A DNA stretch of 64,000 nucleotides from an uncultured Alphaproteobacteria bacterium (lineage in GTDB: Bacteria; Pseudomonadota; Alphaproteobacteria; RF32; CAG-239), in the NCBI GenBank assembly GCA_902464275.1, contig CABQIK010000004.1, positions 18,479 through 82,478 of the forward strand, given 5' to 3'. Position 1 is the first letter of the stretch. The number at the start of each line of letters is the position of its first letter. Positions 6,255 to 58,204 of this stretch are shown here, piece by piece. The notes under the pieces are model-generated. The model did no database searches and had not been told where the DNA came from. It was given only the letters and a program-made list of their open reading frames with translations. Made by a program: the position numbers and the translations under genes.

Positions 6255-6907
6255 TATTTTTCCTCAACGGTTTGCGGGTTGCCGACTAAAATATTAAATG
6301 ACGATTTTATTAATCCGGCTGACCATTTTAAGATAATTAAGCCGCCGACAAGCCCCATGAGCGGGTCAAAAAATACCAAACCGAAATATTTGCCGAGCAA
6401 AAGGGCAATAATGGCAGTTACGGAAGTTAAGGCATCGGCTAAAATATGCAAATAAGCGGCCTTAAAGTTTAAGTTTTCTTTGTGGTGGTGATGCTCGCAA
6501 ATTTCAGCGCCGTGATGATGATGTTCCGACATGATAAGGATACAAACTATATTAACCAACAAGCCGATAACGGTTACCAAAATAGCCTCATTAAATGAAA
6601 TTTTGGCAGGGTGGATAAAGCGGTCAACAGATTCAAAAATTATGCCGAAAGATGTTAATCCTAAAAATAAGGCGCTGGTATAGCCTCCGAGGGCGTTTAA
6701 CACGTCTTCTTTGTTTTTGTAACGGTTGATTACGGCGCAAACCATAAAGGTGATAAATAAGGCTAAAGCATGGGTTCCCATGTGAAAGCCGTCGGCGGTT
6801 AAGGCCATTGATTTGGTTAAAATGCCAAAGCTGATTTCAGCCGCCATGGTAATTAAGGTAACAATAATTACCAACAAAGTTTTGTTTTTTAATTTTTCAT
6901 TATCCAT
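6254..6907 (-). CDS. cation diffusion facilitator (CDF) family transporter, short form without a C-terminal cytoplasmic domain
   Basis: 6 TM helices and His-rich loops (HHHHGAEICEHHHH), with the typical CDF TM-domain pattern. Only 217 aa, and it ends immediately before the next gene. Confidence 0.65.
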   Translation of the reverse strand: MDNEKLKNKTLLVIIVTLITMAAEISFGILTKSMALTADGFHMGTHALALFITFMVCAVINRYKNKEDVLNALGGYTSALFLGLTSFGIIFESVDRFIHPAKISFNEAILVTVIGLLVNIVCILIMSEHHHHGAEICEHHHHKENLNFKAAYLHILADALTSVTAIIALLLGKYFGLVFFDPLMGLVGGLIILKWSAGLIKSSFNILVGNPQTVEEK

Positions 6908-6917
6908 GATTTTCGTC

Positions 6918-7196
6918 CTATTTTATTTTATCCAAATGTTCAACCAAGTCATCAATCAGGGTTTGCGAATCTTTGTTGTTTTTAAGCGCGTCTTTGATGC
7001 AGTTTTGCAAATGGCCGCGCACAACCTCTTTCCAAACGCCTTTTAAGGCTGATTGCGTGGAGGTGATTTGGTTTAAAATTTCCATACAGTCGCGATTTTC
7101 GGCAACCATTTTATTAATGCCGCGAACCTGTCCTTCAATACGGTTAAGGCGGGCGGTTAATTGTTTTTTATCATCTTCAGTGTAGCAAAAAGACAT
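6918..7196 (-). CDS. CsoR/RcnR/FrmR-family metal-sensing transcriptional repressor
   Basis: 92 aa with RLNRIEGQVRGI, the C-x-H-x-C pattern (RDCMEIL...GHLQNC), and the helical-bundle length typical of DUF156. Confidence 0.8.
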   Translation of the reverse strand: MSFCYTEDDKKQLTARLNRIEGQVRGINKMVAENRDCMEILNQITSTQSALKGVWKEVVRGHLQNCIKDALKNNKDSQTLIDDLVEHLDKIK

Positions 7197-7208
7197 ATTT
7201 AATCCTCA

Positions 7209-7240
7209 ATATAGTATATACCCCTATACCCTATCTATAT
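7209..7240. promoter_or_regulatory. candidate rcnR/csoR-type operator (AT-rich inverted repeat flanking C/G tracts)
   Basis: atatagtatataCCCCtataCCCtatctatat lies 13-44 nt upstream of the repressor start. It resembles RcnR TACT-G6-N-AGTA type sites. Confidence 0.35.
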
Positions 7241-7264
7241 GACGAATAAATATGATTGTCAAGC

Positions 7265-8359
7265 CTAAATTTTGTGTTTAAATACGGTTTTGGCCAAAAG
7301 CACAGCGCAAAAGCCGCTGATAATGCTGAGTAAAGCGCCCATTTTGGCGGCGTCTTGCAAGGATGTGTCGGTATAAGCAATATCGGCAATAAATAAAGAT
7401 ACGGTCAGCCCGATGCTTGCGGTTAAACCGATTAAAATTATATCGGCATTGTTAATTCTTTTGTCGGTTGTAAAGCCTGCTAAGGCGCCGATTTTGATAA
7501 ATAAGGCAATGCCGGCTGTTTTGCCGATAATCAGAGAGCTTAAAATAATAACCGTCAGGGCTGAGATGTTGCCAAAGGCAATACCGGCGTTGGCAAGGCC
7601 GAAAAAGAACAATCCGAAGGTTACTATCGGTTTTAGATGCTGTTCAAGTTTGTGAAGAGGTTGAGCGGGAATAAACGGAATAATCCATACCAGAGCTAAT
7701 GAAGCGTGCAGGTTGGCCGTGTATAATCCTAACCACGAAATAAGCGCAGGGAGCAGATACGGCAAGTATGTTTTGGTTTTAGTTTTGTGCAAATACATGG
7801 CGGCGAGCATGGCAAGAGCAATCAGAATCAGGCAAGCCGGCTGAAAAGGTTTATCGGCGTCAGGGTAAAAAAGAGCAATAATACCAAGGCCGATAAAGTC
7901 ATCAATAATGGCTAAAAACAGTAAAAAAGCCAGAGCCGGATGCTTTTTAGGAAAAATTAATTTGGCAAACAGCAGGGCAATGGCAATATCGGTAGCGGTG
8001 CCGACAGCCCACCCGGAAGCATATTCGGTATGGCCGAAAACAGCGTTCAGTCCGTAAAAAATCAGAATCGGCATCAGCACACCGCCCCAGGCGGCAAATA
8101 TGTTCACTAAGGCCTTTTTTACAGGGAATAAAGCGCCTCCGGCGGAAAACTCGTGCATAATTTCAATGGTGACGGAGCCGAAAAACAATACTAAAAAAAT
8201 ATCGTTTACCAAAAAATGAAAATTTATTTCAGCAAAAATGTGATGGTGTACCAAATTGTGATATGAAGAATAATCGGCATTTGCCCACAGCAAAGCAATA
8301 ATAACGCCGCTTATGAGCGGCAAAGACCATTCTTCGGCTAATTGCACAAACTTGTTCAT
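7265..8359 (-). CDS. nhaA: Na+/H+ antiporter NhaA
   Basis: 364 aa, about 11-12 TM helices, NhaA-like sequence (…WGGVLMPILIF…DD motif region). Confidence 0.8.
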   Translation of the reverse strand: MNKFVQLAEEWSLPLISGVIIALLWANADYSSYHNLVHHHIFAEINFHFLVNDIFLVLFFGSVTIEIMHEFSAGGALFPVKKALVNIFAAWGGVLMPILIFYGLNAVFGHTEYASGWAVGTATDIAIALLFAKLIFPKKHPALAFLLFLAIIDDFIGLGIIALFYPDADKPFQPACLILIALAMLAAMYLHKTKTKTYLPYLLPALISWLGLYTANLHASLALVWIIPFIPAQPLHKLEQHLKPIVTFGLFFFGLANAGIAFGNISALTVIILSSLIIGKTAGIALFIKIGALAGFTTDKRINNADIILIGLTASIGLTVSLFIADIAYTDTSLQDAAKMGALLSIISGFCAVLLAKTVFKHKI

Positions 8360-8433
8360 AACTTCTCCGTTGTTGCCAACACATAATAATCAGTAAATTT
8401 AACTTTACAAGTAAAAGCGGATAAAAAAGAATT

Positions 8434-8895
8434 TTAATTTGTCAAGTTGCTTTTTAAGGTTTCAAGTTTTTCAATTTTAGCTTTGGTTTTGGTTATGTAA
8501 TTATTGGCGCTGTTAAATTGTTCGGTTGCGTCTTTGCAGCCTTCAGAGCCGTAAGCGGTGAGGCCGCTTTCCGAGCATTTTAAGTTTTTGTCTTTGGCTA
8601 ACTGTTTAATGGAATCTTTTTTAATTTGATAATTGTTTTTAAGCTCAGGTAATTCAGTGTTTATATATTTAAGCAGATTATCTTTGGCTTCTTGGCATTT
8701 TACGGTTCCGGTTTTGGCCATTTGCTCGGCTGAGCAGGCTTCATCCATTTTTTTGGTTAATTCTACATCTTTGTCATCGGCAAAACAAAAATATGCGATT
8801 GCCAAAACAATAAGAACAACAGTTAAGCACCCGTTGTTTTCTTGCGCTACTTCTGAAATTTTTCCGGTTGCAGTATCTATTTCAATTTTGGACAT
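8434..8895 (-). CDS. hypothetical membrane-anchored coiled-coil protein
   Basis: 153 aa, one N-proximal TM (LTVVLIVLAIAYFCF), Lys/Glu-rich helical remainder. Confidence 0.45.
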   Translation of the reverse strand: MSKIEIDTATGKISEVAQENNGCLTVVLIVLAIAYFCFADDKDVELTKKMDEACSAEQMAKTGTVKCQEAKDNLLKYINTELPELKNNYQIKKDSIKQLAKDKNLKCSESGLTAYGSEGCKDATEQFNSANNYITKTKAKIEKLETLKSNLTN

Positions 8896-9041
8896 TTTAT
8901 ACCCTTTGATTACCTTGGTTAAAAACGTTGTTACTATAAAAAACTAATTTTGAAAATTCAATAAAAAATTTGCTTGACCTTGAGTTTACTCTAAGTGCTA
9001 CACTAAAAACAAATCGGTAAAATTTTTACCAGGAGGTAAAA

Positions 9042-9062
9042 ATGAAAGTTTTTTTATTATAA
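9042..9062 (+). promoter_or_regulatory. candidate leader peptide ORF (MKVFLL) with consensus SD in the macAB 5' region
   Basis: aggagg sits 5 nt upstream of the ATG. The 6-codon ORF is flanked by the motifs ggtaaaatttttacc, ggtaaaaa and tttttacc, which could form alternative pairings. Confidence 0.25.
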
Positions 9063-29356: not shown

Positions 29357-29433
29357 GGCGGACGTAGCTCAGTTGGTAGAGCCCCGGTTTGTGGTACCGG
29401 TTGTCGTGAGTTCGAGCCTCATCGTCCGCCCCA
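29357..29433 (+). tRNA. tRNA-His (anticodon GTG) with encoded G-1 and CCA
   Basis: Hand-folded cloverleaf: acceptor GCGGACG/CGTCCGC, D-stem GCTC/GAGC, anticodon stem CCGGT/ACCGG with loop TTGTGGT, T-loop TTCGAGC. An extra 5' G pairs with the discriminator C. Confidence 0.75.
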
Positions 29434-32507: not shown

Positions 32508-35500
32508 ATGAAAACGCAATATAAAAACTTTATCAGTAAAGTTAACCAGACCGGTAGCCTTATGATTGAGGCGATGGCGATGTTGGCGTTAATTTCATTG
32601 GTTACGCCAACCCTTTACAAAAAGTCGGCGGAAAGAACCACGGAGTTGCAGGATATTAACACCGCAACCCATGTTCGCACCATTATGAAGGCAGTGGACA
32701 ACTACGTTACCGCCAACTATCAGAGCCTGCTTGATAACAAACTGCGCAATGACGGCTCGGTGTATGAAATTGATTTGAACGATGACAGTTCAGAAGACAG
32801 TATTCATGACTTTTTTCCGTACGGCTATAAATTTGACGATTTAAAAAACTTCGGCATGCCGAAAGTTATGTTAAAAAGACAAGGATTTTCAATTACGTCA
32901 TTTGTGCAGCTGCCTAAAAAGACCGACATCGGCGAAATGCGCGCCGCGCGTATTGCCTCAATGATAGGCAGTAACGGCGGTTATGTTAACAGCGATAAAA
33001 ATGCGTTGGGCGTAGGCGGCGTTTGGAGCTTGAATCAGGCGGATTTAACCTCTTTGGGTTTTGATACCAACAAAGGTTCGGTGGTTGTGGCCTCATCAGA
33101 TGCCATTAACTCGGCCTCAACCGGCGCGCTTGAAAATGATAAATATTTGCAAAGAACTCCGGTTGACCGTCCGGATCAGCTGTGGCGCAACACCATGATT
33201 ACCGACCTTTATATGGGCGGCGTTACCGGTGTGGACGATATGTATAAAATTTTGGGTGTTGACCAGTTAATTATGGGTAGCACCGATAAAACCAACAATT
33301 TGGAAACATTGGTATTGACCGATGCCGCTCAGGGCGGTGGTTCAGCATGGATGGCGGGTACGTTATCAGCCTTGAACAATGCGTTTAAGATTGATGGTAG
33401 CTCGGAAATGCCGATTTTGACCTTAGCCGATGAAGAAGGCACGATTATGTCGGCAGATTCGCGTACTTTTGACTTATTCCCGGAAGCGGACGGCACAGTC
33501 GGGCTTGAAGTTAATCAGCAAGGGCAAAATATAATTAGCGATTATGCCACCACCATTAACAATGATTTAACGGCAACCGGCGATACCTTAGTGGCAAGCG
33601 GCGGTACCGACACCTCGTTTAAGGCAGGTCCGGACGGGCGTTATATTACGGCGGATGCCTCAAAAGTTTTGTTGCAAAACGGGCAGGTGGAAATTTTGGA
33701 TGATGACGGTACTGGCGCGGTAACCAACATTAAGGGCAGAGCTAATATCACCGGTATAACCACGGTGGGTACCACAATTAACCCGGGTGCGAATAGTATG
33801 GAGGGTTTAATTCCTGATTATCAGTTTAAAGTTTACGGCACCGGCAATGCTTATGTGGCAAATGACTTAGTTGTTGGCAACACTTTGTATACTAAAAAAT
33901 TTAATACCGCGGAACTCCATGCCGGCGGCGAAATGTTGGCGGGCGATGACGCTCGTTGGCTGCACGCAACCGCAACCGGCGTTAGAGTTACTGACCCGAC
34001 CGATTCTGCCAATGTCAGAACTCGTATGGAAATTACGGAAAACAGAACCGCTTTGTATAATCAGGACGGGCGTAATTCCGGCGGGGGTGAAATGGTGTTA
34101 GATCAAGGGTCTTCCCGCTTAACCGGAAAAGATATGGTTGAGATGTATACTAATGCGGATAACGGCGAAGTTCAGTTACAAAACAATGCTTTGGTTATCA
34201 GAGGTAAAACCGAGGCGAGCGGCGGAAGAAACGCCGTTATCAGCGCCGATGCCGATACGGTTGATCTTAATGCTAACATTACGTCAGTTAATGACGGCGT
34301 ATTTCAGGTTAGACGTGAAGATAATGCCGCCGGCATGCAGAACAGCTTGTATGTAAACCCGAATGACAATACTAACCAAGGTTTGGTTTTGGCGGAAGCT
34401 AACCGCACCACAGTCAGACCGCGAGGTACTGATGGTATTTTTGATGTTCAGGATGAGGACGGTAAACGAGTTTTGAACGTTATGCCGAACGGGCTTAATG
34501 GCGAAACAGTGAATGTAGGATATAACTCATATACTCGCCCGATTGGTACAGTTGATGTGGATAAAGAAAGTGTTAGTTTCTCAGATGTAACCGGTAATTC
34601 GGCTTATCGGGTTGTTGAAGTTGACCTTGACAGGTCATTGGCGCAAAAAACGGATGATGACAATCCGACGAGAGGAAGCGTTTATATTCGTCGCGGCGCG
34701 GTTGAATTAGAATCGCCAAGCGGCGCCGGATATGAAGCTGATGCCGGTTATGGCTACATTGAAGCCGGACGGTTTGTGGCTAATACTAAATACAATGGTG
34801 TTGATATTGATAATCCGAAAAACGCTTATACATCGGATTATAGCAGTTGGGGAATTAATGCAGACGATGACTATGATCGTTATATGGTCAATCCGGCTTA
34901 TACCTCTGTTATGCATGATATTAAACTCACGACCCGCGGCGGCGCGCGTTTAAGCGATATTTTGCCTGACTTTATCAATAAAGGTATTTATGTGGTAAAC
35001 AACACTTATAAAGATACCGGTTTCAGTCTTAATAGTATTACGGCAACAGCTAGTAATGGCGGTCAGATTTCGGTATCGGTAAACAACTGTAGTGAAAGTG
35101 CATCTAAGTGTATAGACGAAGTCGGCAGTGGTACTTTATCTAATGAAAACCAATGGGCGTCACCGTTTTTGGGTGTGGTGCCGGCGCCGTTATGTCCTCC
35201 GGGGCATGCCCGCGTGATTACGATTACGCCGGCGGGTTTTCAGATGTCACAAGCCGGACAGATGATTAAAAGTAAACATTATGTAGGAGCTAAATCAAAT
35301 AAAAAGGGTAACCGTTTTGTTGTTGATGAAAGGGCAAGCCTGAATGAATTAGGGTTGGTTAATAATATGGATATGGCAGATGATAACCAAACAATTACAG
35401 GCGCTCAGTATCAACATAGTACAATTACGGATTCTGCCGGTAATACTAGAGATCTTTATTACTTAGGCTATGGAAATGAACCTACATTAACTAAGACTCA

Positions 35501-35963
35501 GGGTAGCGGGACGACCACATACGCGCCGCAGCCGCTTTATTTCCAACAAAGCACCTGGCTGAAGAGTAAAGTGCAACCGCAAAATAATGGTCAAGCAGGT
35601 TCATGTAATGAGAGCTTGGGCAGTGGCGAAGGTTGTAAAGACTTTGTCGGTTGGTCGGCGATTATGGGCTTTATTTATCCGGCAAGCTTGTACGACAATA
35701 TTATTAGTGCGGTTGTAGGAAATCCGCCTAAGGATGAAGATGTTTACTGGAACGTCTTTCCGGTTAAAGCCAAAACATTGGAAGCATACGCTACGGTTTA
35801 TTGCTACTTTGACCGTACCAATCTTTATAACTCAGGTATGCAAGATGAGTATACTGATAAGTATGACCAGTTAAACTCTTTCAGAACAGGCCGTACAAAG
35901 CCTACCAACTCTTATACCGAAAGATTGGATGACCCGACCTTAAAGTATAAAAACCCGTGGTAA
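32508..35963 (+). CDS. giant (1151 aa) protein with prepilin-type N-terminal cleavage/methylation motif; putative pilin-like adhesin
   Basis: MKTQYKNFISKVNQTG|SLMIEAMAMLALISLV has G at -1, E at +5 and a 20-residue hydrophobic helix. The rest is Gly/Thr/Asn/Asp-rich and beta-like, with a Cys-containing C-terminal region. SD aggaga. Confidence 0.6.
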   Translation: MKTQYKNFISKVNQTGSLMIEAMAMLALISLVTPTLYKKSAERTTELQDINTATHVRTIMKAVDNYVTANYQSLLDNKLRNDGSVYEIDLNDDSSEDSIHDFFPYGYKFDDLKNFGMPKVMLKRQGFSITSFVQLPKKTDIGEMRAARIASMIGSNGGYVNSDKNALGVGGVWSLNQADLTSLGFDTNKGSVVVASSDAINSASTGALENDKYLQRTPVDRPDQLWRNTMITDLYMGGVTGVDDMYKILGVDQLIMGSTDKTNNLETLVLTDAAQGGGSAWMAGTLSALNNAFKIDGSSEMPILTLADEEGTIMSADSRTFDLFPEADGTVGLEVNQQGQNIISDYATTINNDLTATGDTLVASGGTDTSFKAGPDGRYITADASKVLLQNGQVEILDDDGTGAVTNIKGRANITGITTVGTTINPGANSMEGLIPDYQFKVYGTGNAYVANDLVVGNTLYTKKFNTAELHAGGEMLAGDDARWLHATATGVRVTDPTDSANVRTRMEITENRTALYNQDGRNSGGGEMVLDQGSSRLTGKDMVEMYTNADNGEVQLQNNALVIRGKTEASGGRNAVISADADTVDLNANITSVNDGVFQVRREDNAAGMQNSLYVNPNDNTNQGLVLAEANRTTVRPRGTDGIFDVQDEDGKRVLNVMPNGLNGETVNVGYNSYTRPIGTVDVDKESVSFSDVTGNSAYRVVEVDLDRSLAQKTDDDNPTRGSVYIRRGAVELESPSGAGYEADAGYGYIEAGRFVANTKYNGVDIDNPKNAYTSDYSSWGINADDDYDRYMVNPAYTSVMHDIKLTTRGGARLSDILPDFINKGIYVVNNTYKDTGFSLNSITATASNGGQISVSVNNCSESASKCIDEVGSGTLSNENQWASPFLGVVPAPLCPPGHARVITITPAGFQMSQAGQMIKSKHYVGAKSNKKGNRFVVDERASLNELGLVNNMDMADDNQTITGAQYQHSTITDSAGNTRDLYYLGYGNEPTLTKTQGSGTTTYAPQPLYFQQSTWLKSKVQPQNNGQAGSCNESLGSGEGCKDFVGWSAIMGFIYPASLYDNIISAVVGNPPKDEDVYWNVFPVKAKTLEAYATVYCYFDRTNLYNSGMQDEYTDKYDQLNSFRTGRTKPTNSYTERLDDPTLKYKNPW

Positions 35964-36020: not shown

Positions 36021-37421
36021 CTATTTAACAATATTACATTCATTTATCAAAACGAGTTTAGGGTTGGTATGCGCGGCTTCAAGCAAGCGTTTGTTAAACC
36101 CGCTTTTGGAAAATAGGCCATAAGTTAAATCATACCCTTTAAAATCAGGTGTTTGGCATTTTTCAACTAATTTGGCGTAAACATCAATATCAACAGGTTT
36201 GTTATCTTTGTAATATTTACATTCGGCCGCAAAAATGCGTTTGTGGCTTTCGTCAATTGCAACTAAGTCTATTTCAGTGTGTTTGTTCCAATATGCGCCA
36301 ATGCGAGAAGGCACAAAATTAAGTTGTTTTTCATTGCAAAGCTTGGCAAAAATATCGCGGCAGATTTCTTCATAAACAAAAGCAACATGATTATCAATAA
36401 AGTTGGCTTTCAGTTTGTCTTGCACAAAATTTAAATTATCAAGCTCAAGCTCTCCCTTATACGGAAAAACAAACATAAACCAAAAACGCATAAACACGTC
36501 TTTGATAAAATATAAACCTTTACGGCTTTTTTCAGGATTTTTGTCAGTTATCGGCACGCGTTTTTCAAGTAAATATAGTCCTTGCAAGGTTTCAAGATAA
36601 GGGCTTAATTTGTTGCTTTCAGTGGCCATGGCTGAAGATATTTCTGACAGCTTATGGTTATTTTGCGCAATTGCTTTCATTACGGAATAATAGTTTATCG
36701 GCTCTTTAACTTCTTTGTTAAGTAAAAAAGCCGGTTCCTCATATAAAAAACCGTTTTTGTTAAAAATAACACGGGAGATGTTATCGGTTAAAGAATTTTT
36801 ATTGTCAAAAAGCTCCAAATATTTAGGCACGCCGCCGGTTACGGAATAAAGTTCAACCACGTCAGCAAAAGATTTGTGGCGATAATGCTTTTTTATATCT
36901 GAAAAAGCCAGCGGGGCAAGTCTGATTTGAGAAGTGCGGCGTCCGTATAAGGGGCTGTTTTCCGCTAAAACCTGCTTGGTCATCATGTTAATGTATGAAC
37001 CACAGATAATAACCATGATGTTTTGCTTAGATAAAATTTCGTCCCATGCTTTTTGAAAAATAGAAGTAAAAGCCGGATTGGTGTTAACCATATATTGAAA
37101 CTCGTCAAGCACCAGAACTTTGGTTGCCGGATTAGGCATAGCGGCAAACAGCTTAAACAGCTCAAGCCAGTCATCAAAGTTTGCTTTGGCAATAAAAGGC
37201 TGTTTGGAAAATTCCGCCAGATTTTGGGCGAATCTTTTCATGCTTTGCGGTTCCGATTCTTCGGTTGCTAAAAAATAAAGAGCGGGTTTGTTTTTAATAA
37301 ATTCTTGGATTAATGCGGTTTTGCCAATGCGGCGGCGTCCATATAAAACAACGAAAGAGTGTTTGTTGTCATACTCTTGCTCTAAATCTGAAAGTTCTTT
37401 TGTCCTGCCGATAAATTCCAT
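36021..37421 (-). CDS. AAA+ ATPase of the archaeal-ATPase/DUF234 family (orphan)
   Basis: Walker A GRRRIGKT, DEFQ Walker B, C-terminal DUF234-like region; 466 aa. Confidence 0.7.
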   Translation of the reverse strand: MEFIGRTKELSDLEQEYDNKHSFVVLYGRRRIGKTALIQEFIKNKPALYFLATEESEPQSMKRFAQNLAEFSKQPFIAKANFDDWLELFKLFAAMPNPATKVLVLDEFQYMVNTNPAFTSIFQKAWDEILSKQNIMVIICGSYINMMTKQVLAENSPLYGRRTSQIRLAPLAFSDIKKHYRHKSFADVVELYSVTGGVPKYLELFDNKNSLTDNISRVIFNKNGFLYEEPAFLLNKEVKEPINYYSVMKAIAQNNHKLSEISSAMATESNKLSPYLETLQGLYLLEKRVPITDKNPEKSRKGLYFIKDVFMRFWFMFVFPYKGELELDNLNFVQDKLKANFIDNHVAFVYEEICRDIFAKLCNEKQLNFVPSRIGAYWNKHTEIDLVAIDESHKRIFAAECKYYKDNKPVDIDVYAKLVEKCQTPDFKGYDLTYGLFSKSGFNKRLLEAAHTNPKLVLINECNIVK

Positions 37422-43374: not shown

Positions 43375-44436
43375 TTATTTTTTAAACAGTAAATTAGTGT
43401 TAAAATAATCAATGCCCATGGCCGATTTTACTTCATGCAAAGTGTTTGAGGCGGTTTCACGCGCTTTTACGCTTCCGTTTTGCAGCATGTTGAAAATTTC
43501 GCCGATGTCGGAGGCCAGTTGTTCACGCTTTTCGCGAATCGGTTTCAATTCGTTTTGCAAAATTTCATTCAAAAAACGCTTAACCACGCTGTCGCCCAAG
43601 CCGCCTTTTTGGTAATGAGCCTTTAATTCCGCCAAATTTTGATAAGCAGGCAGAAAAGCGGCAAAATGTTCGTCTTTGCAAAAAGCGTCAAGATAAATAA
43701 ACACCGGATTATTTTCAGTGTGGCCGGGGTCTTCAACCCGCAAGTGGGTGGGGTCGGTAAACATACTCTGCACTTTTTTCTTAATATCATTTGACGAATC
43801 GGAAAGATAAATGCAGTTGCCTAATGATTTGCTCATTTTGGCGGCGCCGTCAAGCCCCGGAAGGCGCGAGCAGATGCTGCTTTCAGGCAAAACCGCGGTC
43901 GGTTCAACCAAAACCGGACGGTAAACGGTGTTAAACGAGCGCACAATTTCGCGGGTTTGTTCAATCATCGGCAGTTGATCTTCGCCTACCGGAACAAGAT
44001 TTGCCTTAAAAGCCGTGATGTCGGCAGCCTGACTAATCGGGTAGGTTAAAAATCCGACCGGAATGCTTTGCTTAAAGCCGCGCAGATGAATTTCATTTTT
44101 AACCGTCGGATTGCGCTGCAGGCGAGATAAGGTTACCAAATTCATGTAGTAGAATGAAAGCTCGCACAGCTCCGGAATTTGCGACTGAATGAAGATGGTT
44201 GACTTTTGAGGGTCAAGCCCGCAAGCCAAATAGTCAAGCGCAACTTCTGAAATGTTGGTGCGAACTTTATTAATGTCATCGGCGTTGTCGGTTAAAGCCT
44301 GAGCATCGGCAATCATAATGTAAATATTGTGATATTTGCCGCTGTTTTGCATTTCAACGCGGCGCTTTAATGAGCCGACATAGTGCCCTAAATGTAATTT
44401 TCCGGTGGGTCTGTCACCCGTTAAAATCGTGTCCAT
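43375..44436 (-). CDS. trpS: tryptophanyl-tRNA synthetase
   Basis: 353 aa; HIGH-type LHLGHY and KMSKS motifs; TrpRS-like length. Confidence 0.75.
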   Translation of the reverse strand: MDTILTGDRPTGKLHLGHYVGSLKRRVEMQNSGKYHNIYIMIADAQALTDNADDINKVRTNISEVALDYLACGLDPQKSTIFIQSQIPELCELSFYYMNLVTLSRLQRNPTVKNEIHLRGFKQSIPVGFLTYPISQAADITAFKANLVPVGEDQLPMIEQTREIVRSFNTVYRPVLVEPTAVLPESSICSRLPGLDGAAKMSKSLGNCIYLSDSSNDIKKKVQSMFTDPTHLRVEDPGHTENNPVFIYLDAFCKDEHFAAFLPAYQNLAELKAHYQKGGLGDSVVKRFLNEILQNELKPIREKREQLASDIGEIFNMLQNGSVKARETASNTLHEVKSAMGIDYFNTNLLFKK

Positions 44437-44519
44437 AATTAAACTCCTTATTTATTCTTTCAATTAAACCAAAGGTTACGGCTTGTCAAGGTTATCTTAT
44501 GATTATGGAAGTTTGTGTA

Positions 44520-44548
44520 TTGACAGATTTGACAAATAATTGTATAAT
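44520..44548 (+). promoter_or_regulatory. perfect consensus sigma-70 promoter (TTGACA-17-TATAAT) facing the 4-gene insert
   Basis: ttgaca at 44520-44525, 17-nt spacer, tataat at 44543-44548; about 200 nt upstream of ORF 44755. Confidence 0.5.
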
Positions 44549-44754
44549 TACCTTGTTTACTTAAAAATATGTTCATTATTATGTTGAAAATTCGGTTGGT
44601 TTTAGGTTGTCAGCTTAAAAACAGTCAGAAAATGCAGCAGAAAATGAAAATTTTGCGGTGAGCAATCGTTATTGTGGCACATTCTGCCATCTCCCTTTGA
44701 CGGTTTACTTTATTTGGTCTATCTGGAGAGTAGACGCCATTAACATTATTTCTT

Positions 44755-45774
44755 ATGGCAAAAATTTTCAGTTTTTTGGGAAGCCTCTTAGAGGGACTTC
44801 TTATGGTTGTTGTTTTTTACAACCCGGTGTCGTTTCTTGTTTGGAGTTTTGTTGCTCCGAAAAAAGCCGCCGCGATCATGGTCACCAAAGACGATGACTC
44901 AAAGGTTATGCGCTTTTTGAGCAATCTTCACAAGCCGTTGACTCATCTGTATCCGATGTACATCAAAAAGCACTTCATGAAAGCTTTGGGGATGAGGAAT
45001 TATTCCGCCAACGCTCAGGTGAAAGCTTTTAGAGCTTTGAACGAATCGGACGTTCCTGCAAAAGCGGTTAAGCTTGTTGAACAAATGAGCGATGTTGCCG
45101 TTTCCAAGCTTTGGGATGACAACATGTTGCGGCATAGGAGTTACAATCCGGTGATTACCTATGCGGTTACTGAGTCGGGAAAGTCGTTGATGACTCGTCA
45201 GCTCAAAGTGTTGTTTGAGAGGGAGGATTATGATAGTTTTGGCAACTATGCCAAGAATCATACTCTGAGCAAAGCAGCATTAGAGTTGCTCATTGAGCGG
45301 ATGGAGCAAAAGTCAGAGCAAAAGTCAGAAGACAAAGAGTCTTTTGATAAGTTGCAAGACGTTCTGTTCAGCCAGATTGAAAAGAACGGCCTTCCTGCAA
45401 ACTTGGTGGAGAAAGCAGTAAAAGCTTGCGGGCAGAATCAGCTGGCGATTACAAAATCTTTTGAAGTCTTCCGCCAGAAAACCTTGGTTCTGTCAAGGGA
45501 CTATAAGGCGTTTTCAGAACTTGTAAAATACAAAAAACTGGCGCCGTCTGTGGAAGCGTTGATGGACAGAGAACAGTACAACAGCTATCTGGAAGCAGGC
45601 AACCATCTTAGTGACGAAGCAATTCGTGAATTTATAGCTCGCGAAAATATGGCAATATGCGATCTTATATTTAAGAACGAAAAGCTTTCAGCGGTGGCTG
45701 TTTTAATGGCTGAAGCCAATCCGAAATTTGCGCTGAAGCTTCCGGCCGGAATTAGTCTGATTTCAAAATGTTAA
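44755..45774 (+). CDS. hypothetical membrane-anchored alpha-helical protein (insert gene 1)
   Basis: 339 aa; N-terminal hydrophobic hairpin (FSFLGSLLEGLLMVVVFY / VSFLVWSFVAP); helical remainder with a KSEQKSEQKSEDKE linker. No SD. Codon usage differs from flanking genes (ctt/ctc/agg/tca enriched, NCG depleted). Confidence 0.5.
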   Translation: MAKIFSFLGSLLEGLLMVVVFYNPVSFLVWSFVAPKKAAAIMVTKDDDSKVMRFLSNLHKPLTHLYPMYIKKHFMKALGMRNYSANAQVKAFRALNESDVPAKAVKLVEQMSDVAVSKLWDDNMLRHRSYNPVITYAVTESGKSLMTRQLKVLFEREDYDSFGNYAKNHTLSKAALELLIERMEQKSEQKSEDKESFDKLQDVLFSQIEKNGLPANLVEKAVKACGQNQLAITKSFEVFRQKTLVLSRDYKAFSELVKYKKLAPSVEALMDREQYNSYLEAGNHLSDEAIREFIARENMAICDLIFKNEKLSAVAVLMAEANPKFALKLPAGISLISKC

Positions 45775-45778
45775 GGAT

Positions 45779-46315
45779 ATGACGAATTTTGAAATTATGC
45801 TGGGCGGACTCTCGTTAGTCTTGTTCGGCGGAGCCTTCACCTTGCTGTTGTGGGGTGATTTTCAAAAGGCCAAGACTTTTAAAATCGTTCTGATTCTGCT
45901 CATGGCTGTCAGCTCGGTTGGCGCGGTTTACGCCATATACAGCCAACTGAAACTTGCTGCGCAAATAGCAGAGAAGTATGTGATTGTCGCATTAGAAAAC
46001 GAATATTCTACGGTGAATGAAACCGATGTGTTCGGAATTGATGCTGATTCTTACACCATTCTGCCTACCGGTAACAAGCTTTTGAAGAAAACCTTGTACG
46101 GGAATTTGGAGTGGAGAGATACTTCTTTTGTGCAGCAAATTGACTCATCAGGTAACAGCAAAACAATTTGTTTTGTAAAAACGCGAGTCAAAAGAGTTAA
46201 ACTCGGCAGCGCAGAAGCGACAAGACCGAATCAACCCGGCGCAGAAATAAAAGTAAAGTGCCGGTATAAAGTCGGGGATACGGTAAAGGTCCGCGGTGAC
46301 CGCATCATTCCTTGA
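45779..46315 (+). CDS. hypothetical 2-TM protein with beta-rich C-terminal domain (insert gene 2)
   Basis: 178 aa; TM hairpin then a soluble domain ending in RYKVGDTVKVRGDRIIP; 4 nt after gene 1. Confidence 0.5.
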   Translation: MTNFEIMLGGLSLVLFGGAFTLLLWGDFQKAKTFKIVLILLMAVSSVGAVYAIYSQLKLAAQIAEKYVIVALENEYSTVNETDVFGIDADSYTILPTGNKLLKKTLYGNLEWRDTSFVQQIDSSGNSKTICFVKTRVKRVKLGSAEATRPNQPGAEIKVKCRYKVGDTVKVRGDRIIP

Positions 46316-46328
46316 TTTTAGTTCTTAT

Positions 46329-46358
46329 AAAAAAACTCCTCGTTTGAGGAGTTTTTTT
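46329..46358 (+). terminator. intrinsic terminator inside the insert
   Basis: aaaaactcctcg tttg aggagttttttt. Confidence 0.6.
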
Positions 46359-46425
46359 AATGCCCTCTTGATTTATTTAAAAGTTCTCGTTATAAGGTAA
46401 TCAGAAACTCAAATTTTTATGATAT

Positions 46426-47031
46426 ATGTATGAATTTTTAAAAATTATGATGGTTGTTTGCGAAATCGCGATGATCATCGGTTTTGTGTTTTTTGTTGCT
46501 TTCCAAGCTTATTTTTGGAGCGACAGAGATCATGCTAAAACCTTTTTTATGTTTGCGCTGTACTCATTGCTTGGCGTGAGTATTTGCGGATGGTTTATTC
46601 ATGGCTGCGCGCTTAATGCAAAAGCTATTGTTTCTGCGGTTGCGGTATTGCTGATTATGGCTCAATTTTGCTTTTTTAAGGAGCGGTGGCAAGAATTTTA
46701 TGCCAGAGAGCGGTCACCGTTTAAAAAGCTGAAGAAAGCTCTTATTTTTACAATTTTAGTATTGATATTGGGCTTTTCAGGTGCTTACGGTTACTGCAAA
46801 AAGCAAAAAGCTGATTATCAACGCGCGCATGCAGATATGTATGTGGTTGTCGGCTTTGGAATAAGAGCCGCAGATGATGGCATGAGCTCAGTATATGATA
46901 CTGATGAAGACCATTTGTTTGTGGCAATCAGACCCGTAGACTGCTATAAAGCAAAACCGAGAGTGTTGATATCAAGAAAATATCATCTCGGGGATACAGT
47001 ACTGATGTTTCACAATAAACCGGTGTCGTAA
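46426..47031 (+). CDS. hypothetical 4-TM protein (insert gene 3)
   Basis: 201 aa; 4 predicted TM helices; C-terminal about 60-aa domain ending in KYHLGDTVLMFHNKPVS; non-host codon usage; no SD. Confidence 0.5.
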   Translation: MYEFLKIMMVVCEIAMIIGFVFFVAFQAYFWSDRDHAKTFFMFALYSLLGVSICGWFIHGCALNAKAIVSAVAVLLIMAQFCFFKERWQEFYARERSPFKKLKKALIFTILVLILGFSGAYGYCKKQKADYQRAHADMYVVVGFGIRAADDGMSSVYDTDEDHLFVAIRPVDCYKAKPRVLISRKYHLGDTVLMFHNKPVS

Positions 47032-47579
47032 TGTATGTATCAGCGCTTGCAGGCATGATTATTTGCGGAACGTTTTTGTTGCTCGCCTTTATATTTTATG
47101 TACGCGCGCAATGGGTGTTTTGGTTTTATTACGGAGAAGAGCTGTATTGGTTAGTAGGTTTTATTATGGTGCTTTTGTTCAGCGCCTCCTATGCCGATAT
47201 GCTTTTTCCGCTTGATGGAACTGATTTGCTAAGCTCCGCTTTGATTTTTGTGTTTGTTTCCGCCGCGCAATATGTGTGCGGTCAGGTACGATTAGAGGAA
47301 ATGCGCAATACGCCTCCGTGGTGTTGGGAGCATTATGCCAAAAAATTTATGCCGCTGTTTATTGTTGCCGTTGTTGCGTTGCGCTTTGCTTTTGCCGGAT
47401 GTTTGGAGTATCGGGAAAATTATCGTTGGAATCATGCCGAATCGGTTGATGAAAATTCGGAAGTAAAGATTTTTAACGGTAGGCAAATCAAGCAACCGGT
47501 TTCAAAGTTTAAGCTCGGGTATCAGGAAATTACCTCAGCGGTTGAACGCGAAAAACAACGTAAAACTAAAAAGAAGTGA
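47031..47579 (+). CDS. hypothetical 4-TM protein, paralog of gene 3 (insert gene 4)
   Basis: 182 aa; same 4-TM topology and similar N-terminal region (FVAFQAYFW vs FYVRAQWVFW); start overlaps the previous stop (TAATG); codon usage closer to the host. Confidence 0.5.
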   Translation: MYVSALAGMIICGTFLLLAFIFYVRAQWVFWFYYGEELYWLVGFIMVLLFSASYADMLFPLDGTDLLSSALIFVFVSAAQYVCGQVRLEEMRNTPPWCWEHYAKKFMPLFIVAVVALRFAFAGCLEYRENYRWNHAESVDENSEVKIFNGRQIKQPVSKFKLGYQEITSAVEREKQRKTKKK

Positions 47580-47613
47580 AAAAGACGCCTTTATTTATAA
47601 AGGCGTCTTTTGC
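47580..47613. terminator. bidirectional intrinsic terminator between insert gene 4 and der
   Basis: aaaagacgccttta…taaaggcgtctttt. Confidence 0.6.
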
Positions 47614-47614
47614 T

Positions 47615-48961
47615 TTATTCGGCGTACGGATTGTCTGATTTGCGGACGGTAACGCGTACCGGAACACCGCCTAAATTGAAAGTTTCGCGCAGGCTGTTAA
47701 CCAAATAGCGCAAATACGAATCGGGCAAACCTTCCGGATTACTTGAAAAAATGTAAAATGAAGGCGGACGTGTTTTGGCCTGAGTAATGTATTTTAACTT
47801 AATCCGCCGTTTGTTTTTGCCTAAAGGCGGAGTGTTTTGTTCCTGTACGTCAGAAAACCATTTGTTTAGCGGCGCAGTCGGGATACGAGTGTTCCAACGG
47901 TCATAAACCTTAAACACCGCGCTCATTAATTTATCTAACCCCTCGTTTTTAAGGGCAGAAATAGTAACAGTCGGCACGCCGGTGATTTGGGTTAAAGAGG
48001 TTTGCAGTTTGTCGTTTAATTTTTGCAAAGCCTCAGAACGTTTGGCAATGTCCCATTTATTAACGGCAATTACCAGAGCGCGACCCTCGTCAATTACCTG
48101 GCGGGCAATGGTTAAATCCTGCTTGTCTAAAACCGCGTTGGCGTCAAGTACCAAAACTACAACCTGCGCCATGAAAGCGGCATGCTTGGTGCTGGCCGCC
48201 GACATTTTTTCAAGCGAATCGGTAATTTTGGATTGGCGGCGCAAACCGGCGGTATCAACCAAATTAACTTTGCGTCCTTTCCACTGCCATTCTGAAGTTA
48301 TGGCGTCGCGGGTGATGCCTGCTTCCGGGCCGGTGAGCATACGTTCATCATGCAACAAAGCATTTACCAAGGTTGACTTGCCAACGTTAGGACGTCCGAC
48401 AATGGCAAGCTGTATGGGTTTTTCGTACTCCGGTTCCGCATCCGGTTTATTTTCAGGTTCAGGAGCTGCGGTAACGGCAATTTCACTTAACGCCGTGTAT
48501 AAATCTTCAAGACCTAATCCATGCTCGGCCGAAAAAGGAATCGGCTGTCCCAAGCCTAGTTTATAAGCCTCAAAAATGTTGTCTTCCTGAGCTTTGCCCT
48601 CACATTTATTGGCAAGCAAAATTACCGGTTTATGGCTTTGTCTGACCAGGGCGGCAAAAGTTTCATCATACGGGTGCAGACCGGCGCGGGCGTCAAACAT
48701 AAAAAGGCAAACATCAGCCTCACTGATGGCGCGTTTGGTTTGGGCAAGCATGCGTTGCTCAATGCTGTTTTCTTTGGCGTCTTCAAATCCGGCGGTATCT
48801 GTTAAACACAAGTCAAGATTTTTGAAGCGAACAACCGCTTTTTTACGATCACGCGTAACCCCCGGCTTGTCATGCACAATCGCAAGTTTTCTGCCGGCTA
48901 AGCGATTAAACAGCGTTGATTTTCCTACGTTTGGTCTGCCGATCACTGCCACTTTTAACAT
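47615..48961 (-). CDS. der: ribosome-associated GTPase Der/EngA
   Basis: Two tandem G domains (GRPNVGKST twice) plus a KH-like C-terminus. Confidence 0.9.
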   Translation of the reverse strand: MLKVAVIGRPNVGKSTLFNRLAGRKLAIVHDKPGVTRDRKKAVVRFKNLDLCLTDTAGFEDAKENSIEQRMLAQTKRAISEADVCLFMFDARAGLHPYDETFAALVRQSHKPVILLANKCEGKAQEDNIFEAYKLGLGQPIPFSAEHGLGLEDLYTALSEIAVTAAPEPENKPDAEPEYEKPIQLAIVGRPNVGKSTLVNALLHDERMLTGPEAGITRDAITSEWQWKGRKVNLVDTAGLRRQSKITDSLEKMSAASTKHAAFMAQVVVLVLDANAVLDKQDLTIARQVIDEGRALVIAVNKWDIAKRSEALQKLNDKLQTSLTQITGVPTVTISALKNEGLDKLMSAVFKVYDRWNTRIPTAPLNKWFSDVQEQNTPPLGKNKRRIKLKYITQAKTRPPSFYIFSSNPEGLPDSYLRYLVNSLRETFNLGGVPVRVTVRKSDNPYAE

Positions 48962-48972
48962 TTTTGAATTTC

Positions 48973-50298
48973 CTATTTATATGCAACCAGTTCAGCGTCA
49001 TCGGTAACAAACACAACAGTTTGCTCAGCCGCAATCGGAGCTGACGGAATCGGTGAGTTTAAGCTGATTTTATTTAATATTTTTCCGTTTTGCGGCGATA
49101 CGGCATAAGTTGTTCCGTCAGATGAGGTAACTAGCAGTTGGCTATTTACCATTACCGGACCGCTTAAATAAATATCGGAGCGGTCTTTTAAATCATAATC
49201 GTCAAGCAACGGCGCAGACCACAAAATTTGCCCGTTTTGTTTGTTAAGAGCAATAAGCTCATGACTGTTGGTTAATACAAACAAATAGTTTCCGGCTACC
49301 CACGGCATGTTGGTTCCGCCTAATTTTTGCTTCCAGATAATTTCGCCGGTGCGGTAATTTACGGCGGCAAGCAAGTCATTATGACCGATGGCATAAACAG
49401 TTTCATGGTCAATAACCGGCGAGGCTTTTACGGCGTTAATTGCAGTTGAAAAGTTAGATTGAGCAGAATCAATTAAAGCTACCGTCCACGCCGGATAGCC
49501 GATGTCGGCATTAAAAGCCTGAATATCGCCGTTGGAAAATCCGGCAACCGCAAAGCTTTTGTCTGCCGAACAGGCCGGAGCAGAGGTTCCTGCCAAAACC
49601 GTATCTTCAGCCGAAATGTTATATTTCCAAACCTCGTCACCGGTTTTGGTGTTTAAGGCTAACAAGCGATTGTCTAAGGTTTGTACCAAAAGCTTATTGG
49701 CGCAAACGGCGGGAGCCGTTCGGAGCGGAGTATCTAAATCTTTGCGCCATAAAATTTTGCCGGTGGTTTTATCAAGGGCAAAAACACTGCCGAATCCGGC
49801 GGCGGCATAAATACCGTCGGCATCGGCGGCCAGTCCGGCGCCGTTCAGCCCGTTTTCATTTTCAAACTTGCCGGCAGGTTTAAGTTTTTGCTTCCAAATT
49901 TTGCGGCCGTCAGTTAATGAAAAAGCGCTCACTGTTCCGTTTACGTCTTGCGCAAATACGGTGTTTTTGTAAATTATCGGAGAGGCAAGCAACAAATTGC
50001 GTTTGGAACTGCCTTTACCGAAATTTTGTTCCCAAACTTTTTGCATATTGTCGCCGGCTTGAACGTTGGCGAGGTTGTGAGCGGCATTGCCGCCGGTTTG
50101 ACTCCATGATAAATTGTTTGTTGCGGCCGGAATTTCAGTTGCCGGAATTGAAACGGCGGCAAAATCAACCGCGTCATCTGCCGCAAGCACTGAAACTCTG
50201 GTGCCGGTCGGGAGTTTTTTGTCGCTTGAAAAAATTCCGCATGAAGACAAAAGCACGGCAAGCAAACAAGCGCCTATTAAATTGGGTTTTGTAAACAA
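48973..50298 (-). CDS. bamB: outer membrane protein assembly factor BamB
   Basis: Lipobox LLSSCG; PQQ-like beta-propeller repeats; conserved position between yfgM and der. Confidence 0.8.
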   Translation of the reverse strand: MFTKPNLIGACLLAVLLSSCGIFSSDKKLPTGTRVSVLAADDAVDFAAVSIPATEIPAATNNLSWSQTGGNAAHNLANVQAGDNMQKVWEQNFGKGSSKRNLLLASPIIYKNTVFAQDVNGTVSAFSLTDGRKIWKQKLKPAGKFENENGLNGAGLAADADGIYAAAGFGSVFALDKTTGKILWRKDLDTPLRTAPAVCANKLLVQTLDNRLLALNTKTGDEVWKYNISAEDTVLAGTSAPACSADKSFAVAGFSNGDIQAFNADIGYPAWTVALIDSAQSNFSTAINAVKASPVIDHETVYAIGHNDLLAAVNYRTGEIIWKQKLGGTNMPWVAGNYLFVLTNSHELIALNKQNGQILWSAPLLDDYDLKDRSDIYLSGPVMVNSQLLVTSSDGTTYAVSPQNGKILNKISLNSPIPSAPIAAEQTVVFVTDDAELVAYK

Positions 50299-57858: not shown

Positions 57859-58204
57859 TGGGCAGCTGCTAGGAATTTTGTCGCTCGTGTACCTTTTTGT
57901 GTACAAGTCGCTCCAAAATTCCGTCGCATTAGCCACATTCTACGCAGGCTTGGATTATTTTTTAGGATAAACATCAGAAAATCTCCTCAAATTGTTGCAT
58001 TTAAGAAGATTTTAGCTCGCGTTTTTTTTGCAATATTTACGAGTCCGGGGTGTGTATAAGTTGTATGGTTATGGGCGGGATTATTCCGCTGCGCTCCATT
58101 CACTGCGCTCATCGGCTGTTGCCGACCGGCGTTCTTTCGCCCGCCTTTCGCTTGTAGTCGAACTCACTTCTGTGATTTCGTATCACGGAATGTGCCAATT
58201 AAAA

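Follow-up and report, generated by a model that had tools for sequence, protein, structure and literature searches.

A 64,000-nucleotide (nt) stretch of contig CABQIK010000004.1, from the assembly of an uncultured alphaproteobacterium, carries between trpS and der four consecutive plus-strand open reading frames (ORFs) for membrane proteins, which we call g1 to g4 and which had been described, from the sequence alone, as a compositionally foreign insert. Here the window means this whole stretch, along which all positions are numbered, and related loci are designated L001, L002 and so on; they come from metagenome-assembled genomes (MAGs) and metagenome contigs, on which all comparisons are based. 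Placing the block in this comparative framework, we found that it is resident in a genus of uncultured Alphaproteobacteria of the gut, where it always lies divergent from trpS. Each of its genes occurs in deeply diverged allele classes, which are exchanged gene by gene between backgrounds nearly identical at the flanks. In addition, g1 follows a structured leader RNA that the original prediction had missed and whose kind is not in the Rfam library.

The four ORFs, of 339, 178, 201 and 182 amino acids (aa), lie where they had been placed (Table 1), and hydrophobic segments open all four proteins, both in hydropathy profiles and in AlphaFold 2 (AF2) models. The perfect sigma-70 promoter ahead of the block and the two strong intrinsic terminators within it are confirmed, as is the missing Shine-Dalgarno (SD) sequence: an SD-like 4-mer at -18 to -4 is present in 0/4 of these genes, compared with 30/48 genes of the window. 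The block likely forms two transcription units, the first made up of promoter P1, the leader, g1, g2 and terminator T1, and the second of a weaker but conserved promoter P2, g3, g4 and terminator T2. Transcription from promoter P1 would start near 44555. Promoter P2 is putative and falls below the threshold of the promoter scan. The spacer between g2 and g3 is conserved even where the g3 alleles are only 45% identical, with T1 followed by TTGATT, 17 nt and TATAA[G/A]; the T1 hairpin and its T-run are kept in six loci, the -35 hexamer and TATAA of promoter P2 are invariant in six loci with very different g3 alleles, and the MY start of g3 is invariant among alleles. Within the units, AAGGA sits 2-3 nt before the g2 AUG and overlaps the g1 stop codon, so that g2 is probably translationally coupled to g1, and the g3 stop overlaps the g4 start codon (TAATG).

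Table 1. Features of the trpS-der region and of the g1 leader in the window (TM, transmembrane segments)
Feature	Position	Strand	Description
trpS	43375-44436	-	left neighbour of block, divergent from g1
Promoter P1	44520-44548	+	TTGACA, 17 nt, TATAAT; sigma-70 consensus, 12/12 match
Leader 5' domain	44553-44665	+	one long irregular hairpin (P1, P1b, P2-P5); from minimum free energy folds and covariation
Helix P1	44553-44561 with 44657-44665	+	5' domain
Helix P1b	44564-44568 with 44650-44654	+	5' domain
Helix P2	44572-44577 with 44643-44648	+	5' domain
Helix P3	44582-44586 with 44635-44639	+	5' domain
Helix P4	44591-44598 with 44622-44630	+	5' domain
Helix P5	44601-44608 with 44612-44619	+	5' domain
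Leader 3' domain	44666-44759	+	P6, P7, P8; from covariation and covariance model
Helix P6, outer	44666-44671 with 44698-44703	+	asymmetric internal loop
Helix P6, inner hairpin	44675-44679 with 44685-44689	+	3' domain
Pseudoknot 5' strand	44690-44694	+	UCUCC, in 3' internal loop of P6
Helix P7, hairpin	44717-44721 with 44731-44735	+	3' domain
Pseudoknot 3' strand	44725-44729	+	GGAGA, in P7 loop
Helix P8	44736-44740 with 44755-44759	+	GCCAU with AUGGC; includes g1 start codon
g1	44755-45774	+	339 aa; hydrophobic N-terminal helical hairpin (by hydropathy one ~35-aa stretch, residues 1-35), then all-helical alpha-solenoid domain
g2	45779-46315	+	178 aa; 2 TM by hydropathy, C-terminal beta-rich domain ending Y.[VI]GDTV
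Terminator T1	46328-46359	+	after g1-g2; -17.4 kcal/mol, z -7.5
Promoter P2 (putative)	46368-46396	+	for g3-g4; TTGATT, 17 nt, TATAAG; read from sequence
g3	46426-47031	+	201 aa; 4 TM by hydropathy, short C-terminal domain ending YHLGDTV
g4	47031-47579	+	182 aa; 4 TM by hydropathy, basic tail
Terminator T2	47580-47611		bidirectional, common to g4 and der; -19.5 kcal/mol, z -7.3
der	47615-48961	-	right neighbour of block in window

The ~200 nt from the promoter to the g1 AUG are 92-95% identical within the genus and 83% identical to L022, with the coding DNA of g1 at 59-77%. A hidden Markov model (HMM) of the spacer places the same element directly before all of the distant g1 homologues, and each of the two tandem copies in L018 has one. 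When a degenerate DNA pattern derived from the leader was scanned blind over the metagenome collection, 32 loci were returned. By the HMM, 25 of the 32 are true leaders and seven are chance matches with neither a leader nor a g1-family ORF; 24 of the 25 true leaders are followed by a same-strand g1-family ORF, and the sequence of the remaining locus stops at the leader. The 18 distinct leaders, which are 55-95% identical to that of the window and some of which are closely related to each other, always stand immediately upstream of a g1-family ORF, in at least six contexts, five of them besides the trpS context. Consistent with this, a covariance model of the 3' domain, run over 280 kb, matches exactly once for each g1-family gene and at no other place, and the leader is found nowhere else in the 64-kb window or the loci searched. 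None of the 4227 models of Rfam 15 matches 44437-44754 or the divergent leaders of L029, L031, L046 and L017 at an expectation value (E) of 1 or below, and a scan of the whole window at gathering thresholds returns only two tRNAs. A weak minus-strand match to the Rfam Phe_leader at 46326-46424 (E 0.35) is the T1 terminator region and was rejected.

Conservation of an intergenic region could also act at the level of DNA, through overlapping divergent promoters and operators of trpS and g1, with any RNA structure being incidental. In this genus the spacer does also hold the trpS promoter and SD sequence, and 44437-44520 is conserved. However, g1 homologues away from trpS have this ~200-nt element ahead of them too, the conserved part lies downstream of the -10 hexamer, and many base pairs change on both sides, with pairing far above slid controls; we regard the DNA-level explanation as hardly credible. 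Most lineages carry a TTGACA -35 hexamer and a -10-like hexamer ahead of the leader with similar spacing, so that the transcript start would fall at or near the first base of helix P1.

Independent minimum free energy folds of seven divergent leaders give the same architecture, with a 5' domain and a 3' domain (Table 1). Pairing statistics were taken from structure-blind MAFFT alignments of the 18 distinct leaders; an alignment made with the covariance model left a one-column register shift in window-type leaders, and the pseudoknot was scored by a register-free helix search. In the 5' domain, 88.7% of cells pair, compared with 35-54% with slid partners, and there are 15 double-sided pair changes, a number reached in 0/500 shuffles. 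The 3' domain behaves alike, with 81.9% of cells pairing versus 35-50% with slid partners and again 15 double-sided pair changes. The internal loop of P6 pairs with the loop of P7 in 18/18 leader types through compensatory variants (UCUCC/GGAGA, GGUUUCC/GGAAACU, GUCUCC/GGAGAC, AUGUUCU/GGAACAU and AAGUCUCU/GGAGACUU), and this helix averages 6.1 bp, whereas shuffled strands average 4.3 bp, with a maximum of 5.1 over 1000 shuffles. In some lineages it runs into the first bases of the P7 3' strand, so that, although we read it as a pseudoknot, an alternative helix is possible. Its GGAGA strand in the P7 loop is SD-like, yet lies 26 nt upstream of the g1 AUG. The last helix, P8, has 5 bp in 17 of the 18 leaders, with a compensatory change in L058 (UCCAU/AUGGA) and only 4 bp in L016, and is otherwise invariant; with GCCAU pairing to AUGGC, it would sequester the g1 start codon. 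Covariation thus supports a predicted fold of eight helices and a pseudoknot, and the leader combines the conserved structure of a cis-regulatory leader with a fixed 5' position before one gene family. Neither an alternative ON structure nor a terminator or U-tract was identified in it.

The 5' domain contains an upstream ORF (uORF), MFIIMLKIRLVLGCQLKNSQKMQQKMKILR, at 44569-44661 on the plus strand, whose AUG is invariant in 18/18 leaders. The 200 nt might therefore be kept for a hydrophobic leader peptide starting at this AUG, which would act by stalling or attenuation, or resemble a type I toxin encoded by a folded-back mRNA, in place of a sensing RNA. The first four codons are nearly conserved as well (M-F/V-I-I), the peptide is Phe/Ile-rich and hydrophobic, and helix P1 pairs the RNA 5' end with a strand ~105 nt downstream, enclosing the uORF as in fold-back-inhibited toxin mRNAs. 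However, neither frame nor length is conserved: the uORF has 12, 18, 25, 30, >40 or >70 codons depending on the lineage, and 1-nt indels break its frame in L007 and L022. A suitably spaced SD sequence is missing, and the run of purines that precedes the AUG is the covarying 5' strand of P1b. Columns 26/114 of the alignment show CG, UG and UA and columns 24/116 change from UA to GC, at codon positions with compensating partners; the leader lacks a terminator; and the 3' domain, which is outside the short uORFs, is equally conserved and structured. The fixed short ORF and the terminator/antiterminator hairpins that define a leader-peptide attenuator are not found. Since frame and length are unconserved, and the codon positions that vary are compensated within P2 and P4, RNA structure is the main constraint, although the uORF may still have a role. 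We rejected the leader peptide in that role and consider it unlikely to explain the element.

Structured leaders that occlude the start region are known among the pseudoknotted SAM-II and preQ1 riboswitch classes and among ribosomal-protein leaders. The g1 leader resembles such translational riboswitches and leaders in that a covarying multi-helix fold stands directly 5' of one gene family in any context, contains a pseudoknot and includes the start codon in its last helix. A strong, constitutive-looking promoter precedes it, so that control would act after transcription starts, as in riboswitch leaders. It differs from known riboswitches in matching 0/4227 Rfam 15 models, and from translational riboswitches in being large (~200 nt, eight helices), in having no recognizable SD sequence to mask and in embedding a uORF in its 5' domain. 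Nothing in its gene context hints at a ligand. The RNA is outside the described families of Rfam 15; for the locus as a whole, novelty was also assessed with four protein-family libraries, the PDB and literature searches, which gave no result. We are confident that the leader is a cis-acting translational regulator, and it may act as a riboswitch-like translational switch in which one conformation would occlude the g1 start codon. Small-molecule sensing by a true riboswitch, as opposed to a response to a protein, a small RNA, temperature or the uORF, is a minority possibility in our estimate. If it is a genuine sensor, it would be an orphan regulatory RNA class from poorly studied uncultured Alphaproteobacteria of the human gut and rumen, and its tie to a single protein family means that an identified signal would point to the role of the protein.

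The N-terminal hairpin of g1 carries conserved NP and AP[KR]xAA motifs, and the predicted model shows the stacked helix pairs of an alpha-solenoid. PDB fold searches return only generic solenoid matches; shallow alignments underlie all our protein models, which are predictions. Close homologues of g1 number only 25, at 47-100% identity, and none of them is annotated; a profile search of 1.84 billion representatives returned 87 clusters, mostly full-length at 330-380 aa. For ten g1-family clusters that were looked up, the only source names were hypothetical proteins of Alphaproteobacteria MAGs, and every sighting of this family of ~350-aa proteins is in MAGs of gut and rumen Alphaproteobacteria. 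Other lineages have the g1 homologue by itself, in unrelated contexts such as xseA-M23-bacA, terC, hydG/hydF and flagellar genes, and rplU-rpmA-obg. L018 has a tandem duplicate: two g1-family genes at 6705-9044 of that locus (also in L019), each behind its own structured leader, which suggests that leader and gene duplicate as one unit.

Searches for known relatives of these proteins gave little. Pfam, NCBIfam, PADLOC and PHROGs return only sub-threshold noise for g1-g4, Pfam finds nothing consistent and no repeat-family match in 46 g1-family members, and a PDB sequence search with the g1 and g2 profiles finds no match. Thus g1 shares a predicted solenoid fold with HEAT, ARM and ankyrin proteins but matches none of their repeat-family profiles, and differs further from them in its anchoring by an N-terminal hydrophobic NP hairpin and in its restricted distribution. 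The name UPF0335, given to one g1 homologue by the Joint Genome Institute (JGI), was not reproduced by Pfam and is treated as spurious. Neither the RNA nor the proteins turned up in literature searches, which is weak negative evidence. In metagenome loci of a second lineage, the L032 and L038 leaders are 96% identical in DNA and their g1 homologues 59% identical in protein; for L039 in the same comparison, the values are 79% for the leader and 34% for the protein. The contrast shows that, in the family as a whole, the protein evolves fast downstream of a conserved leader.

As originally described, g3 and g4 are colinear tandem paralogues. Iterated profile search also joins g2 to them as a third paralogue that had been missed, and this g2/g3/g4 family is found only in this genus. 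The proteins g2 and g3 have a C-terminal domain in common that begins with YV.V and ends with Y.[VL]GDTV, visible even in DNA as a shared motif. In the predicted model of g2 (mean confidence score, pLDDT, 74), two TM helices appear to be followed by a beta-rich domain. An NfeD-like OB-fold for the Y.[VL]GDTV domain was considered and dropped for lack of Pfam support. The positive-inside rule gives a weak indication of topology, which would place the g1 solenoid in the cytoplasm and the beta domains of g2 and g3 in the periplasm. The solenoid may work as a protein-binding scaffold within an inner-membrane complex of the g1-g4 products; that the proteins form such a complex, with the solenoid as binding scaffold, is about evenly balanced.

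The comparative data change the picture of how the block came to lie at this site. It adjoins trpS, in divergent orientation, in 17/17 related loci recovered (L001-L015, L022 and L023), which belong to uncultured Alphaproteobacteria MAGs (one labelled Lachnospiraceae), with several contigs titled human gut metagenome; no empty trpS-der site was seen among them. An insertion between trpS and der as an event is thus unsupported, and the claim of foreign base composition likewise fails: the block has a GC content of 0.40-0.45 and a third-position GC content (GC3) of 0.39-0.50, in window ranges of 0.36-0.48 and 0.35-0.51. The overall codon deviation of g1-g4 (per-gene G-statistic) lies in the upper half, yet ordinary genes match it, and the reported contrast in NCG codon usage disappears at NCG/NCN 0.27-0.38 versus a median of 0.26 in other genes. 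What remains of the codon argument is a preference for AGR among arginine codons (0.43-0.67 in g1-g3, median 0.09) and for CTN among leucine codons (0.50-0.60 in all four genes, versus 0.39). The original prediction had also named orthologues conserved at the locus with a housekeeping function as evidence that would count against it; orthologues are indeed kept there, with no housekeeping annotation for any of the proteins.

That the block is a recently acquired, compositionally foreign toxin/immunity or defence island is, in our view, very improbable. The enriched AGR and CTN codons in g1-g3, the SD sequence missing from all four genes, the confinement of protein homologues to a narrow clade and the strong promoter and terminators of the block's own would fit such an origin. 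However, the block occupies the same site in all relatives, even in lineages with g1 only ~39-50% identical, GC, GC3 and NCG usage are normal and the codon deviation is no outlier. Presence at one site in all relatives, together with normal GC, leaves a recent foreign island unsupported. No tRNA, integrase, transposase or bracketing direct repeat was found at the block borders (44437-47620), the closest tRNAs being at 29358 and 58391, and the g1 family and its leader are old and occur across the lineage. A phage or prophage origin was also rejected: neither g1 nor the leader is found in viral contigs, where five matches to the leader pattern are due to chance. Thus, unusual codons and a missing SD sequence in lineage-specific membrane ORFs need not mean a foreign island.

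Compared with the window, the ProS, PheT, PheS, L20, L35 and TrpS proteins of related loci are 97-100% identical, whereas g1-g4 are 39-87% identical. Between the window and L013, synonymous divergence (dS) is 0.26 in trpS, saturated in g1, 1.72 in g2, 0.40 in g3 and 0.41 in g4. Discordance of this kind also appears gene by gene. L014 and L015, with a trpS dS of 0.03, have a g2 dS of 0.01 and a g1 dS of 0.92 (69% aa identity); L012 and L013, with a trpS dS of 0.01, reach a dS of 2.47 in g3 (48% aa identity); and L011 and L014, with a trpS dS of 0.47, have a g1 dS of only 0.15 (95% aa identity), so that one g1 allele is common to more diverged backgrounds. In sliding windows, identity to L013 is 92-93% in the leader, 51-74% in g1-g2 and 97% at the start of g3, dips again within g4, and is 92-100% from the 3' end of g4 into der. 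Mosaic or chimeric alleles are visible in the g1 protein alignment. The ORFs of g1-g4 are intact in all loci, with a ratio of nonsynonymous to synonymous divergence (dN/dS) of 0.08-0.42.

Discordance of the alleles with the flanks and among the genes requires recombination of old allele classes. Thus, the block holds old functional allele classes shuffled by homologous recombination, and is made up neither of decaying genes nor of a single acquisition. Horizontal transfer, as originally proposed, survives in the form of whole-gene alleles exchanged between lineages, and not as a single acquired island. The conserved leader and the der-side flank probably serve as anchors for homologous recombination.

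Such diversity might simply arise because g1-g4 are dispensable, weakly expressed membrane proteins specific to the lineage and are under relaxed constraint, with no diversifying selection and no antagonist. In line with this, dN/dS of g1-g4 is below 1 everywhere and, at 0.2-0.4, several-fold above the flanks, rare codons are used, and g1-g4 have no functional domain match. However, relaxed constraint would raise dN and not dS, and, for a given genome pair, dS in the cassette exceeds that of the neighbouring genes 10- to 100-fold. Nor does it account for the same g1 allele at a trpS dS of 0.47 and different g1 alleles at a trpS dS of 0.03. All ORFs are intact in all loci with their motifs conserved, and conservation of the promoters and of an elaborate regulatory RNA speaks for a maintained function. 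Relaxed constraint is therefore improbable as the explanation.

Taken together, the best explanation, to which we give a probability of about 0.6, is a resident hypervariable cassette in which a structured leader gates g1 and the proteins form an inner-membrane module. Our best inference is that this module is translationally gated, is under diversifying selection and works in defence, immunity or recognition. Phage, bacteriocins or contact-delivered effectors might shape the alleles through diversifying or negative frequency-dependent selection, or kin recognition might do so; that the variability is driven by an antagonist, and hence that the function is defence, immunity or recognition, is a tentative proposition, somewhat short of even. 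A more specific version is a real prospect, though less likely than not: a new pseudoknotted riboswitch-like class of gut Alphaproteobacteria would sense a cellular or infection signal and gate membrane-anchored solenoids, which with three small partners would make up an undescribed defence, immunity or self-recognition system under frequency-dependent selection.

Several points weigh against the resident, leader-gated cassette as we describe it. The transcription start, the fold of the RNA in vivo and any ligand are all read from sequence, and the membrane topology of g1-g4 comes only from hydropathy and charge. Since P8 is almost invariant and its 3' strand is constrained by coding, covariation says little for this helix, and there is no obvious ribosome-binding site for a switch to expose. 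The AUG at 44569 opens a hydrophobic uORF (MFII...), which makes ribosome- or peptide-based control conceivable. No toxin, effector, immunity, secretion or defence domain is found in the module by Pfam, PADLOC, NCBIfam or PHROGs, and the beta domain of g2 has no fold match. Values of dN/dS are below 1 throughout, which falls short of demonstrating positive selection, and the high dS could come from alleles imported from unsampled relatives, with no balancing selection needed. On the right flank, der, bamB and yfgM have a dS of 0.34-0.93, so that the genome baseline is uncertain; the side with aminoacyl-tRNA synthetase and ribosomal-protein genes may be unusually conserved.

Hypervariable loci between conserved flanks include O-antigen, capsule and pilin loci, hsdS cassettes, Proteus ids and Myxococcus traA. 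The cassette resembles these loci in its fixed site, its near-identical flanks, its inner alleles far older than the flanks, its gene-sized mosaicism and its alleles common to different species. Unlike O-antigen, pilin, hsdS and recognition loci, it encodes small inner-membrane proteins and an anchored solenoid, for which surface exposure is not indicated, in place of glycosyltransferases, pilins, specificity subunits or known recognition proteins. With polymorphic toxin/immunity and bacteriocin-immunity arrays it shares tandem paralogous small multi-TM proteins and strain-level hypervariability, and its hypervariability and recombination are those to be expected of a defence, immunity or recognition module. 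Immunity proteins with an alpha-solenoid (ankyrin- or HEAT-like) exist in polymorphic toxin/immunity systems. In contrast to such arrays, toxin, secretion or delivery, and mobility genes were not found in or beside the block, g1 stands alone in other lineages, and PADLOC, Pfam and NCBIfam give no match. The cassette is thus a clean natural case of gene-by-gene allele shuffling between near-identical chromosomal backgrounds, and such shuffling usually marks molecules at the front line with phage, bacteriocins or kin.

The right edge of the cassette is less fixed than its left. Between g4 and der, L004 and L007 have eight additional genes, which means that the trpS-der placement holds only in some lineages and that the right edge is a rearrangement breakpoint. 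These genes (L004 13024-17533, L007 13067-18179), which are missing from the window, encode small unknown proteins, an Ion_trans channel, a peptidase A24, rplY, pth, ychF and a 167-aa unknown protein. A 94-nt non-coding stretch at 57977-58070 of the window, for which Rfam has no match, is 87% identical to L004 13178-13270, just downstream of g4 there; it may represent a short conserved element carried along in the rearrangement. Next to der in the window, a gene for a BamB-like PQQ beta-propeller lipoprotein (48973-50298, minus strand) is more divergent than its neighbours, at 77-86% protein identity, and has a dN/dS of 0.14-0.16 compared with 0.03-0.06 for the aminoacyl-tRNA synthetase genes.

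The behaviour expected of a foreign insert fits another gene in the window better than the four-gene block. This 466-aa ATPase_2 + DUF234 gene (36021-37421, minus strand, GC 0.37) lies between a 1151-aa unknown gene and proS, and the same interval is a strain-specific insertion of ~1.4 kb whose two flanks are joined directly in all related loci. The 1151-aa protein (32508-35963, plus strand) is large, lineage-specific and without a Pfam match; L004-L007 and L022 have counterparts of 1130-1151 aa upstream of proS, and the gene at this place in L014 has 1020 aa.

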